Source of the DNA: Eledone cirrhosa
Taxonomy: Eukaryota
DNA length: 64,000 nucleotides
Reading direction: 5' to 3'
Assembly: GCA_964016885.1 (NCBI GenBank)
Contig: OZ024750.1
Coordinates: forward strand, 10,788,001 to 10,852,000
Position numbers and translations under genes: made by a program. Below, piece after piece: positions 13,151-64,000 of the stretch (positions are counted from its first letter, which is position 1; every line of letters begins with the position of its first letter). Under the pieces are notes generated by a model. It was not told the DNA's origin. It saw only the letters and a list, made by a program, of their open reading frames with translations, and did no database searches.

Positions 13151-13707
13151 ATAAAATATTAAAAAAATAATGAATAAAACAATGAAACAGTTCCTTATAT
13201 TAAACAAAAAAAGTTCATTATTTAACGATCGTTTCTAGGATATATATGTGTTAGAATTGGCATGCATATTCAACAGATCTATGTACAAAATTATACAAAA
13301 TTATACAAACTATCAAAATTAAATATACATACCAAACACATATATATGCCGTCTTCAGAAATATTTCTGAAGACGGCATATATATGTGTTTGGTATGTAT
13401 ATTTAATTTTGATAGTTTGTATAATTTTGTATAATTTTGTACATAGATCTGTTGAATATGCATGCCAATTCTAACACATATATATCCTAGAAACGATCGT
13501 TAAATAATGAACTTTTTTTGTTTAATATAAGGAACTGTTTCATTGTTTTATTCATTATTTTTTTAATATTTTATCTTGACTCTGTATTCCGTTTATCTTT
13601 CACCGAAAGTGATTTTTCATTGCATCTCTTCTTTCCATGATATCCGGATTACATTGAGTTCTTCATACGGATTGGATACTACCGTAAACTCTTGGTAGAT
13701 TTATCTA
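13151..13707 (+). mobile_element. Fold-back element A: perfect 424-bp palindrome (13151-13574) plus a 133-bp tail, between (TA)n tracts
   Basis: Axis between 13362 and 13363, no spacer. Identical 70-aa ORFs on both strands confirm the symmetry. Each arm holds a hammerhead motif. Confidence 0.9.
13362..13506 (+). ncRNA. Type I hammerhead motif with a long stem II insert (mirror copy at 13219-13363, - strand)
   Basis: TATTT-CTGAAGA(13367-13373)-cggcATATATATGTGTT...AACACATATATATccta-GAAA(13490-13493)-CGATCG-TT-AAATA. Stem I TATTT/AAATA, palindromic stem III ACGATCGT, predicted GUU cleavage site. Confidence 0.65.
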
Positions 13708-13727
13708 CATATATATATATATATATA

Positions 13728-13800
13728 TGTGAATGTATATATAGCATATTTGGCAATATACGGTATGCTTAATTAAAAACAGTTTGAATACCTTGCGCTG
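13728..13800 (-). mobile_element. Fragment of fold-back family E (tail end)
   Basis: Matches the reverse complement of about 62975-63046 (TTTGGCAATATAC.GTATG.TTAATTAAAAACA.TTTGAA) and starts at (TA)n. Confidence 0.75.
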
Positions 13801-13805
13801 TTCTA

Positions 13806-13893
13806 TTTCATCCTTACGGGGGTTGCTAAAATAATGTACCAGTAATACACTGAGATAATTGCTGGCCTTGTGCCAAAAGTAGAAACAATTATT
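13806..13893 (+). mobile_element. SINE S1, 3' half
   Basis: TCATCCTTACGGGG...GTACCAGTAATACACTG..TTGCTGGCCTTGTGCCAAAAGTAGAAACAATTATT. Confidence 0.8.
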
Positions 13894-14309
13894 ACTGGTG
13901 GCCATTTTATCGACTAAATTAAGGCGGAGCTCCATCATGGCCGCAGCCGCAGTCTAATGAACGGATCCAATACAAAAAAAATTGAATAACAAAGTACCCA
14001 AACGAAACACACACACACACACACACACACACACACACACACACACACACACACACACACACACACACACACACACACAAGCCAAATAGAAGTACACTTA
14101 AAAGGTATAGAGGCGTCAGTAGTGGAACCTTACTAATAAGGTTTGTATTGTCCAGCTAATACATACAGCCTGTTGGTGAGTGAAAGGTTTCTCTGCTAAA
14201 TGTTATGGTAAAAGACACACAAGAAGAATAAGGCGACATGTTGAGTGTTGGATATTTCGGACACAAAAAGACGAACGTGATTAGATATGAGCAGCTTGAC
14301 ACTTAGATA

Positions 14310-15450
14310 TGTATTGTTGTTGTTGTTGTCGTTGTTGGTGGTAGTGTCGTCGTTGTTGTTGTTATTGTTGGTGGTGGTGTCGTCGTCGTTGTTGTTGTTA
14401 TTGTTGGTGGTGGTGGTGCTGCTGTCGGTGTTGTTGCTGTCAGTGTTGGTGGTGGTAGCGATGGTGGTATTTGTGGTGGTGGTGGTGGTGGTGATGATGG
14501 TGGTGGTGGTGGTGATGATGGTGGTGGTAGTGGTGGTGGTGGTGGTGGTGGTAGTGGTGGTGGTGGGTCAGTGTGTAGAGTATTTTAGAGAAAGTTTCTA
14601 TTTTCTTTCTCTTCCATTGTATTCTCTCTCTCTCTCTCTATTATATTCTCTCTCTCTCTCTCTCTATTATATTCTCTCTCTCTCTCTATTATATTCTCTC
14701 TCTCTCTCTATTATTCTCTCTCTCTCTCTATTATTCTCTCTCTCGCTCTATTATATTCTCTCTCTCTCTCTATTATTCTCTCTCTCTCTCTATTATTCTC
14801 TCTCTTTCTATTGTATTCACCCCTCACCTTCCTTTTTAGATGTTTTTCTTTAAACCTTTTCTATTTCTTTCTCAATCACTCCTCTTCCCTTTCTCCTACT
14901 TCCTCTCCGTTTCTTTCTCTTTCCCTCTACCTCGCTTCAACACTCACTCTTTCTATTTCCCCCCTTATCCCCCTCAACACTCACTCTTTCTCCCCTCCCC
15001 TCACTCCCCTCACACTCCTTTCTCTTCCCACCCTCGCTTCCATCAACACTCTTTCTCTCTCTTTCCCCCCTACCTCCCCCCAACACTCTTTCTCTCTCTT
15101 TCCCCCCTATCCCCCAATACTCTTTCTCTCTCTTTCCCCCTACCTCCCCCCAACACTTTCTCTCTCTTTCCCCCTACCTCACCTCAACACTTTCTCTCTC
15201 TTTCCCCCCTATCCCCCCTCAACACTTTCTCTCTCTTTCCCCCCTACCTCCCCCCAACACTCTTTCTCTCTCTTTTCCCCCCTACCTCCCCCCAACACTC
15301 TTTCTCTCTCTTTTCCCCCTACCTCCCCTCAACTCTTTCTCTCTCTCCCCCTACCTCCCCCCAACACTCTTTCTCTCTTTTTCCCCCTACCTCCCCTCAA
15401 CACTCTTTCCTTCTCTTTCCCCCCCTCGCTCCCCTCACACTCCCCCTCTC
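14310..15450. repeat. (GTT/GGT)n, (CT)n and about 39-bp CT-rich minisatellite block
   Basis: Units such as CAACACTCTTTCTCTCTCTTTCCCCCCTACCTCCCC recur at about 15040-15420. Confidence 0.9.
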
Positions 15451-61084: not shown

Positions 61085-62850
61085 ATATATATATATATAT
61101 ATATATATATATATATATATATATATATATATATATATATATATCACAGGAACAACGACGTATATCATCATCCATACATATAAACAACAGAGATCTGCAA
61201 CTCTTAAATTAGTTACAAGCCTTCGACCATGTATTTTCAAATATATAACCAACACAGCGTGACCTATGCTGAATCCTAACGACTACAATATATACATATG
61301 TAAATCTTCACTGAGACAAAATACGTTAAAAGAAACGTTTTCACGAAATAATCTAAACTTAAATACTCAAATACTTAAATTATACTTCTAACGGAATATA
61401 ATAAATATACTTTCTTTCCAGAGGTCTTGTATCTTAAGTGTCGTCTGCTTCATTTTGTTAGCAAACGACATATAATACAGTTAATGTACAAGTATTAGAT
61501 ATTTATAGTTATGCATTATTCACTGTTTGCTCTTATTCATTGTAGCGGTAAGATGCTATTTGTGGCATATGGACAAGTAAATCATTTGAAAAGGAGATAA
61601 ACATTATTTCAAAACTGTGCTGGAATTTTCTTAACTGCATATGGACCTATCATTTTACTGTCATTACCCACATATTTACAAGTGTGTATGTATATATATA
61701 TATACATACATACACACACACACACAAACAAACACACATATATATATGTAAGTGCATATAAGTGTATATATAAATATATACCTATGTTTATATATATATA
61801 TATATATAAATATATGTATATATATATATATAAACATAGATATATATTTATATATACACTTATATATATATAAATATATATATATATAAACATAGATATA
61901 TATTTATATATACACTTATATATATATAAATATATATATATATAAACATAGATATATATTTATATATACACTTATATATATATAAATATATATATATAAA
62001 TATATATATATAAATATATACATATATATATATATAAACATAGGTATATATTTATATATACACTTATATATATATAAATATATATATATAAATATATACA
62101 TATATATATATATATAAATATATACATATATATATATATATATAAATATATACATATGTTTATATATATATATATATATATACTTACACAGTCATACATA
62201 GCGTATGTTGAATGTATATGAGTTATGTTTGTGTACGTGTATGCACTTATATAACCCGGGAATTCAAGTCAAATTTAAATGCAGTTATAGAAATCCCATA
62301 AATAATATATTAGCGATAGGAAAAACTTTCATTGAAAGTACATATATCATTGTATTGGAGACTGTAATAACATATGAGAGGCTTTATTTTTTCTTTAAAC
62401 TCTAAGTCTATTAGCTAACTGGTTTACATCTTAGTAATATTACTATGATCAGTATTCAATGATATATATCAACGCAGCTAATGAAAGAGTAAATATAATC
62501 TATCAACTTGTGGCTTATATTTTCTCCAAACGACCACCATTATAACACTTCCATTGCTTGATATAAATATAATAATAAGATATAATAACGTGTATTTAAA
62601 TGTTATACATACTTCTATCGTAATGCTCGAATAAATGTATGTAAAATGATTGTATACATATATATATATATATTGTTCTGTTAATACAATTCACTTAAAT
62701 GACGACGGGTAGATATTTTGATAAAACAAATGAAATTTATAATCAATTAATTAAGATATGTATTCTTTCTTAGTGAGTCCACAGGATGATAGTGAAAAAG
62801 TTAGTAAGACTTATGTGAACGAAAGATGGAAAAATAGAAAATTCAAAAGG

Positions 62851-63046
62851 TATACTGTATGTTTAATTAAAAACATTTTGAACACCATGCGCTATGAGTT
62901 TTAAAGTAGTGACTATGTCACTTACTTATTCTCGGCAAAAATGCCGAGAATAAGTAAGTCACTACTTTAAAACTCATAGCGAATGGTCTTCAAAATGTTT
63001 TTAATTAAACATACAGTATATTGCCAAATATACTATACATACATTC
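62851..63046 (+). mobile_element. Fold-back element E: about 80-bp arms (62851-63020) plus a 26-bp tail ending at (TA)n
   Basis: Axis CTTACTTATTCTCGGCA-AAAA-TGCCGAGAATAAGTAAG. A family fragment is also at 13728-13800. Confidence 0.88.
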
Positions 63047-63062
63047 ATATATATATATATAT

Positions 63063-63511
63063 ATACGATATATTAACAAATGGAAACTATATTTATAAAA
63101 CCATATTTATTTCATTATACATATTTCAAGGACACCAAGTCAAATTATGGTGCGCTTTCATCAGATAAAATATAATAGAGATCAGTTTTATAAATAAATA
63201 TTGACATACCCTTAAAGAATGCGACCATTTCTGTTTTAAGCTCCCGGATAGTCAGAAATGGTCGCATTCTTTAAGGGTATGTCAATATTTATTTATAAAA
63301 GTGATCTAAATTATATTTTATCTGATGAAAGCGCACCATAATTTGACTTGGTGTCCTTGAAAAATGTATAATGAAATAAATATGGTTTTATAAATATAGT
63401 TTCCATTTAACAAATGTATCGTATTTTTACTCCAATAATTTGTTGAGTGCTTTATATCAGTTATAAAAATATTTTCTTGTTGTATCCCAACAATTTAAAT
63501 ATAACTTCTAC
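63063..63511 (+). mobile_element. Fold-back element F: about 170-bp arms (63063-63233 and 63253-63424) plus a ~87-bp tail, between (TA)n tracts
   Basis: Near-perfect inverted arms. Hammerhead-like CTGATGA(63322)-aagcgCACCA...TGGTGtcctt-GAAA(63359)-aat-GTA with imperfect stems I and III. Confidence 0.88.
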
Positions 63512-63794
63512 ATATATATATATATATATATATATATATATATATATATATATATATATATATATATATGTATAGTATTAATATATAAGAGAACAAAGAA
63601 TCAGAGTTGCATCATATACATATTTAATTACATATTACATATGTTTCACTGTCGATCAGCTCGAGGAACGATCTATTAATGATCGGAAGTATGTAGACTC
63701 GCCTCTATTGATACTCTGCTCTCCAAGAGCATCGAGTGCGCATTCGGCATACCGCCTTAACACCTATATATATATATATATATATATATATATA

Positions 63795-64000
63795 ACAGTA
63801 GAACACTGGAGGGTTATATCCGTAGTGGTAGAGCACCCAGTCCGTGGGAGGAGTTTGGTAGAAGTAGTTCCACAACAGTTAGTTCACCATACTGAGAACA
63901 AATGTTTCACCTTATTCAGATCCTCAGCTCGATTTAGACCGTCCTGGGGGTTCGAATAAGGTGAAACATTTGTTCTCGGTATGGTGAACTAACTGTTGTG
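63795..64000 (-). mobile_element. Fold-back element D, running off the window end, starting at (TA)n
   Basis: Arms 63871-63917 and 63954-64000 are reverse complements with one mismatch, around a 36-bp spacer. Confidence 0.85.

Follow-up and report, generated by a model that had tools for sequence, protein, structure and literature searches.

A stretch of 64,000 nt from Eledone cirrhosa (assembly GCA_964016885.1, contig OZ024750.1, positions 10,788,001 to 10,852,000 of the forward strand; hereafter the window) is AT-rich and filled with microsatellites, and nine short hairpins lie embedded in its (TA)n tracts. How did such hairpins arise? We consider it likely that they are one-off insertion products, or stubs, of endonuclease-bearing (EN+) Penelope-like retrotransposons (PLEs). 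The window would then present the PLE product at its minimum and at high density, with nine stubs in 64 kb covering 4.4% of the sequence. The way in which PLEs build head-to-head inversions and one-sided tails has been named as the next task (PMC8557442, Craig 2021), and the later insertion steps were left unvalidated in an in vitro study (PMC11167929, Frangieh 2024).

Fold-back elements in (TA)n tracts

Self-BLAST of the window recovered all nine fold-backs (Table 1), which sum to 2792 bp. They have a common layout, in which a short arm starting at a TA tract is followed by an axis and by a long arm running on into a one-sided tail. (TA)n was present at 16 of the 17 testable ends, the left end of E being the sole exception, against a chance expectation of about 1.2% of non-microsatellite positions lying equally near a TA run. 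Two other local palindromes that were checked (50376 and 52723) had TA at neither end. Tails were found on the long arm only; that of F measures about 90 nt as read from the sequence, the script value of 102 nt resulting from an under-extended arm. At the junction the long arm bears three to five TA-like bases, and the inverted arm thereby merges into the microsatellite. C2, C3, G and D are oriented with the tail to the left on the plus strand.

BLAST comparison between families gave a single match, of 28 nt, between F and G2, a non-palindromic copy of G, and at least six barely alignable families are present within the 64 kb. A preliminary description of this stretch had reported nine hairpins from mostly non-alignable families, bounded by (TA)n on both sides except in E, and these statements were borne out. 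The same description had overlooked five related pieces (G2 at 55890 and those at 16175, 28790, 17956 and 13729). Further short unique segments bounded by (TA)n lie at 5045-5355, 13012-13125, 16946-17113, 18355-18499, 26782-26996 and 63570-63764; some are duplicated, and they may be the tails of other families.

The two arms have diverged in eight of the nine elements, A excepted (Table 1), which indicates that the elements are not assembly copies. In G, several bases are common to both arms yet unlike G2, and each arm carries private changes in addition, which is the pattern given by one real insertion followed by decay.

A fixed junction and a variable axis

No terminal inverted repeats were detected, the 5' end being unlike the reverse complement of the 3' end in eight of eight complete elements. 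The short arms of C1, C2 and C3 end at one same base beside (TA)n, hereafter the tail-less junction, and their axes all differ. G and E each have a sibling that forms no hairpin (G2 and the stub at 13729, respectively). Truncation of the 5' side with a fixed 3' end was apparent from the stubs at 16175, 28790 and 13729 and from the sequencing depth in runs X1 and X4 (see below). The lack of outer inverted repeats, together with C copies that have a common junction but different axes, argues that these elements are not miniature inverted-repeat transposable elements (MITEs). Taken with the hairpin-free siblings, these features suggest that the hairpin is made anew at each insertion.

Hammerhead motifs

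A type I hammerhead descriptor detected nine cores in the window, compared with 0.62 +/- 0.80 (maximum 3) in 100 dinucleotide shuffles. Eight of these cores lie inside the elements described here, at six independent loci (A, D, F, G, G2 and 17970), A and F being counted twice because of their symmetry. The ninth, at 59436, looks like a chance match. Complete type I motifs, which we regard as candidate hammerheads with cleavage predicted from the motif, were found in A, D, F, G and G2 and at 17956. B retains the first half core only, C the second only, and E has neither. The preliminary inventory was right in listing A and G as recognisable and B and C as halves; the complete motif of D had escaped it, A contains a 116-nt insert in stem II, and F, listed as degenerate, has an intact copy in its short arm beside a damaged one in the long arm. 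The claim that the long-arm copy is directed toward the tail proved correct for all elements having a core or a half core.

In A, a mirror copy of the motif is present on the other strand. Stem III is short and mostly self-complementary. Stem I strands formed 4.1 of 5 Watson-Crick pairs with their own partner, picked by best fit, versus 1.4 with the partners of other motifs. Independent support came from the sequencing reads, in which loose ends before 55976 and behind 56020 were complementary to each other and unlike G2, which corresponds to a compensatory change of stem I between subfamilies. The axis lies within about 17 nt of the core box in five of the eight motif-bearing elements (A, D and C1 to C3) and 80-160 nt away from it in F, B and G. 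Telomere-type repeat units (28464-28475, minus strand) occupy the place of stem III in the long arm of C2 and may represent a telomerase-like or repair patch.

The tail motif and look-alike loci

The sequence TATTGAGTACY occurs six times in the window, where 0.20 copies are expected. The copies belong to C and to G-related families, and variants were found in A, C2 and F. This tail motif lies about 21-23 nt beyond the tail-less junction, and (TA)5 was found 40-45 nt downstream of five of the six copies.

Metagenomes were searched with a core-plus-motif pattern, which imposes the motif but neither the spacing nor any duplication; this search returned 53 loci in 39 groups. Seven loci in five groups (L009, L040, L012, L013, L014, L035 and, judged by eye, L051) resemble true type I hammerheads. 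They match the window elements over 14-35 nt only, mostly at the tail motif; in L051 the stem I strand lies in the inverted arm, and this locus is too diverged to place. L013 and L014, which belong to other families than the window elements, are fold-backs with a tail-less arm, enclosed by direct repeats of 14 and 15 bp that correspond to target duplications (null counts of 1 and 2 of 500). In the window such duplications would be hidden by (TA)n. The spacing from junction to core was 25-28 nt in C1, G, L013 and L014 and 81 nt in A, with F in between.

The remaining 46 of the 53 metagenome loci were set aside as they look like chance matches in coding DNA, as do the nine viral and 27 prokaryote loci returned by the same pattern. 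A scan of viral contigs for the tail motif followed by (TA)5 gave no match, nor did a scan of metagenome contigs with a pattern of the G family. We also considered a conserved tail stem-loop pairing with the motif, and rejected it: per-sequence shuffles gave P values of 0.06-0.95, stems of this kind also appear in 44 of 58 control loci, and no pairs were returned by RNAalifold. In the literature, mainly open texts, the exact-string matches listed for the motif include none on PLEs by title, and a topic search gave nothing further. Probes for the motif were likewise absent from the supplements searched, including that of PMC11167929, with long sequence runs cut in one supplement and the files of PMC4209133 searched in part.

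Two observations stand apart. At L009 (805-1432), two hammerhead-plus-tail modules form terminal inverted repeats around a 309-bp spacer, with the tail kept on both arms, giving a MITE-like outline. In the window, the 86-bp palindrome at 50376-50461 lacks TA flanks; a word similar to the tail motif comes about 24 nt after it, and the palindrome may be an old member.

Sequencing reads on the G2 copy

Words of G2 occur in 19 runs from 15 studies. Reads or contigs from four of the 23 listed runs (X1, X4, X8 and X21) were aligned to G2. In X1 the depth was 0.6-2.1 million over the tail and hammerhead versus 20,000-116,000 at 56150-56469; the corresponding values in X4 were 4,000-80,000 and 2-39. 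The 3' excess was thus 10- to 1000-fold in these two runs. Loose ends consisting of (TA)n were found at the tail end (48 and 98 contigs in X1, 489 reads in X21), and a second (TA)n junction was found near the tail-less point in 433 reads of X21.

Joints at which the alignment switches strand made up nine of the 15 rows shown (28 further rows being outside this view), and eight of them end at 56002-56020, in stem II or stem I. Head-to-tail joints, in the G family only, reach back 75-77 nt to the tail-less junction; they were supported by 35 and 69 reads of X21, with 13 and 16 different starts, and by contigs of X1. The 75-77-nt head-to-tail units of X1 and X21 (55961-56037), each with one complete hammerhead motif, are candidates for a mini-retrozyme. 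In X4, which comes from another organism, the tail end of the same family (55890-55900) abuts (TG)n and not (TA)n, hinting at a shift in target preference.

Origin of the hairpins

The elements work like, and probably are, PLE insertion stubs. EN+ PLE insertions have been described as an inverted 5'-truncated copy with a one-sided tail and a type I hammerhead pointing toward that tail, in a (TA)n target (PMC8557442, Craig 2021; PMC3846280, Arkhipova 2013). The window elements are alike in the head-to-head inverted truncated copy, the tail on one side and the palindrome at the junction, and in a target where duplications would be hidden by the microsatellite. They differ in that whole inserts measure only 150-560 bp, contain no open reading frame (ORF), have tails of 74-134 nt in four families, fall into at least six families in 64 kb and are placed in no clade. 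Minimal hammerheads of metazoan PLEs have been found paired 100-700 bp apart on opposite strands, probably in truncated PLEs (PMC4209133, Cervera and de la Pena 2014). The window motifs share with these the type I order, a short self-complementary (dimer-type) stem III and the occurrence as solitary motifs or opposite-strand pairs, but they close stem II by U-U, C-A or A-U rather than G-C, and that of A is 116 nt long. The Poseidon element PAc of Anolis (PMC11167929) also has two fixed end points, the tail end and the tail-less junction, an AT-rich target, and an uncleaved hammerhead kept in its insertions. However, the ORF of PAc starts at stem II and its tail is short, whereas in G, as judged by eye, frames from the ATGs in and after the core run into a stop after a few codons.

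The preliminary description had read the hairpins as non-autonomous or 5'-truncated PLE products in (TA)n. This reading is supported by their anatomy, the lack of terminal inverted repeats, the fixed junction with a variable axis, the 3'-biased depth, the inverted and head-to-tail joints and the 14-15-bp duplications. An assignment to the Neptune clade found no support: a (TA)n bias is reported for Naiad, Hydra and Neptune alike, and Hydra too has canonical hammerheads, whereas Naiads have half cores (PMC8557442). Probes from B and E gave no match in the supplement of that paper, which is uninformative as long sequence runs are cut there. In the O. vulgaris genome, PLEs amount to 6.83% and 190 families; the word palindrome is absent from the main text of that paper, as far as accessible. 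The basic pattern described here is already published and the tail motif was not found in the literature searched; this DNA adds members to the pattern, with a high density of families.

No element encodes protein, in keeping with the earlier claim. None of the 89 filtered stop-free ORFs of at least 58 aa in the window gave a Pfam match to reverse transcriptase (RT), GIY-YIG or transposase, a 90th (the Sp gene) being scanned separately. The upstream part of G2 (450 bases) showed no coding signal and no Pfam match in six read-through frames, and known PLE protein motifs were found neither in the window nor in the look-alike loci. The absence of ORFs is as expected for stubs.

Several points weigh against an assignment to PLEs. 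An RT or GIY-YIG ORF is linked to no element, either in the window or in the look-alike loci. Published tails measure 30-40 nt; those of A, C, F and G are longer (74-134 nt), and only those of B (39 nt) and E (26 nt) come near. The hammerhead descriptor was written after the sequences had been seen, and the canonical G10.1-C11.1 closing pair is present in none of the five window motifs tabulated. The Rfam scan that had been suggested as a check returned no hammerhead family among the 150 of 650 window matches listed, nor in G2 or at 17940-18060; no gathering-level hammerhead call was made in the seven look-alike loci either, and the clear motif of L012 scored only E 2.7, which indicates that Rfam is insensitive to these minimal forms. 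No complete motif is present in B, C and E, and one side of E is without TA; these three are accordingly assigned by their layout only. As for the reads, summed contig depth is not copy number, and the 3' bias is weak in X8, where the profile is almost level, while in X21 restriction sites confound it. Position 56020 is also the end of the alignment of the commonest subfamily to G2, which inflates the joints there, and fold-back reads can stem from library preparation. Finally, A is 100% symmetric and is read from the assembly.

Proposed mechanism of insertion

Each hairpin may be seen as a hammerhead-and-tail element end joined head to head with a tail-less inverted copy of itself, within a (TA)n tract. 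Staggered nicks in (TA)n would prime two complementary DNAs (cDNAs), a distal start giving the long arm with its tail and a proximal start the short arm. Synthesis of both cDNAs would end prematurely, in many cases within the hammerhead helices or slightly upstream of them; the self-complementary cDNA ends would then anneal, and fill-in would leave a palindrome inside a duplicated TA target. The tail motif may help to set the two start sites, and the hairpins would be dead products and not the replicating unit. In vitro, the Poseidon PLE protein nicks both strands of AT-rich DNA and extends them, reverse transcription starting at two internal sites that bound the tail and using uncleaved RNA (PMC11167929). 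We give this two-primer joining an even chance. A single cDNA snapping back on itself is somewhat less probable in our estimation, although the present data do not separate the two routes; cDNA self-priming has been proposed (PMC3846280). With stubs this dense, the two could be told apart by tabulating axes, junctions and arm differences across the genome.

We tentatively propose, as a possible but minority reading, that hammerhead-bearing PLE ends carry TATTGAGTACY as a conserved cis-signal. Located about 21-23 nt past the tail-less junction and some 40-45 nt ahead of the 3' end in otherwise unalignable families, it would position the two start (or nick) sites of reverse transcription. The hairpins would then record a two-primer reaction at every insertion. 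Each insertion would also duplicate about seven TA units, and PLEs would in this way contribute to the (TA)n load of cephalopod genomes. A live alternative is that the motif is a core-promoter element, with a TATA-like junction 20-25 nt before an initiator-like word, an arrangement of the type proposed for the pseudo-long terminal repeats (pLTRs) of rotifers (PMC3846280). Either way, the motif is a defined target for mutagenesis in the in vitro assay already available.

The templates might be short non-autonomous RNAs mobilised in trans by PLE proteins, either retrozyme-like or SINE-like (short interspersed nuclear element) hammerhead-plus-tail modules of about 75-150 nt or longer non-coding units such as G2. 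This sub-case, which differs from the stub reading only in the template, is a possible but minority option. It would fit the roughly 1000-fold greater depth of a 140-nt module over the upstream part of G2 in X4, the 75-77-nt head-to-tail hammerhead units in reads and the lack of coding signal in the 450 upstream bases of G2. Monomeric and tandem retrozymes of animals derive from pLTRs (bioRxiv 10.64898/2026.07.22.740005, Li 2026), and the window elements resemble animal non-LTR retrozymes (PMC7229834; bioRxiv 10.64898/2026.07.22.740005) as non-coding, probably PLE-derived units with a type I hammerhead, with long target duplications in the look-alike loci and, in reads, with the 75-77-nt units just mentioned. 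However, the window copies are inverted pairs or monomers, known from DNA alone, and the window holds no tandem array; moreover, steep 5' truncation in many families sharing one end module gives an equal depth profile.

That the hairpins formed only after insertion, when TA-flanked PLE stubs underwent break repair by the host or fold-back during replication, appears improbable. (TA)n tracts are fragile, and the telomere-type patch of C2 and the deletion in C3 could be taken as traces of repair; yet three C copies and the head-to-tail joints all place the end of the short arm at one internal junction, and in L013 and L014 the hairpin lies as a whole within a single target duplication. The PLE stub reading has still less to fear from MITEs or fold-back derivatives of a TA-targeting DNA transposon of Tc1/mariner type, amplified as fixed hairpin units. 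These are also short, non-coding, ORF-less and hairpin-forming, with TA at both ends, but such an origin is largely refuted by the absence of outer inverted repeats in eight of eight complete elements, the one-sided tail, the differing C axes, the hairpin-free siblings and the long (14-15-bp) duplications of the look-alike loci, and it leaves the hammerhead motifs and the 3'-biased depth unexplained. Equally improbable is an assembly or amplification artefact, suggested by the 209 of 209 identical positions across the axis of A and by the known trouble that PLE inversions cause to assemblers (PMC8557442), given the arms diverged in eight of nine elements, the private changes in each arm of G and the strand-switch joints, which were seen both in raw reads and in contigs from separate runs.

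In annotation practice, hairpins of this kind may end up listed as MITEs or, as suggested by sub-threshold Rfam microRNA hits of A, D and F among the matches listed, as microRNA precursors.

Table 1. Fold-back elements, related pieces and candidate hammerhead motifs in the window (predicted cuts are read from the motif).
Feature	Positions	Strand	Fold-back span (self-BLAST)	Arms	Description
Element A	13154..13708	+	13154-13571	209/209 identical	perfect 418-bp palindrome, axis 13362/13363; tail about 134 nt; (TA)n on both sides
Element B	16543..16903	+	16543-16860	9 mismatches	318-bp palindrome; 39-nt tail; CUGAUGA half core only (16838)
Element C1	18114..18289	+	18115-18209	2 mismatches	95-bp fold-back, axis in stem II region; hammerhead 3' half; tail about 77 nt; tail motif 18234-18244
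Element C2	28359..28558	-	28439-28558	8 mismatches	C subfamily with a different axis; tail motif variant 28404-28414
Element C3	28603..28755	-	28669-28732	96.9% over 64 nt	third axis; long arm lacks about 37 nt spanning the predicted cut site and junction; tail motif 28648-28658
Element G	60585..61083	-	60664-61083	12 mismatches	420-bp palindrome; 74-nt tail; tail motif 60625-60635
Element E	62851..63046	+	62851-63020	2 mismatches, 16 gap columns	170-bp palindrome; 26-nt tail; no hammerhead, no tail motif; (TA)n on tail side only
Element F	63066..63511	+	63078-63408	13 mismatches	palindrome of about 350 bp; tail about 90 nt; tail motif variant at 63441
Element D	63795..64000	-	63871-64000	9 mismatches	cut by the window; tail, then long arm; axis about 8 nt upstream of core
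G2	55890..56470	-			non-palindromic G copy, 95% over 275 bp, about 300 bp past the G axis; tail motif 55930-55940
Family E 3' stub	13729..13799	-			non-palindromic; tail and about 45 nt; (TA)n at tail end
G-related stub	16175..16335	-			hammerhead 3' half, tail motif 16216-16226, tail; (TA)n at tail end; no hairpin
G-related stub	28790..28890	+			hammerhead 3' half; tail motif 28873-28883
A hammerhead	13362..13506	+			core CUGAAGA at 13367; 116-nt stem II; self-complementary stem III; predicted cut after 13501; axis 4 nt upstream of core
Solitary type I motif	17956..18040	+			complete; core 17970; predicted cut after 18025; directly after (TA)n; no hairpin
D motif	core 63927	-			CUGAGGA; complete; predicted cut after 63897
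G motif	core 60712	-			intact in long arm; A6-mutated in short arm
G2 motif	core 56017	-			complete; predicted cut after 55979
F motif	core 63164	-			intact in short arm, 8-bp stem I; long-arm copy (core 63322) damaged

Other features of the window

A 434-aa open frame at 6046-7350 on the plus strand corresponds to an Sp-type zinc-finger exon with three C2H2 fingers. The only homologue of its variable region is 72% identical, and the nearest cluster holds Octopus Sp8/Sp9-like proteins. On the minus strand, a 130-aa frame at 23405-23797 has no Pfam hit; its end presumably resembles the C-terminus of CRE-type non-LTR elements.

A SINE-like repeat of about 186 bp, which we take to resemble cephalopod SINEs, is found at 27483-27668 and throughout the window, with 23 BLAST hits, and a head-to-head pair of it makes the palindrome at 52723-52903. 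A dispersed inverted pair of 382 bp (12453-12834 and 35327-35673) is 87% identical and was assigned to no class. A young tandem array of a 49-bp unit, with 13.5 copies at 99% identity, occupies 40029-40686, beside a 38-bp array at 40918-41450.

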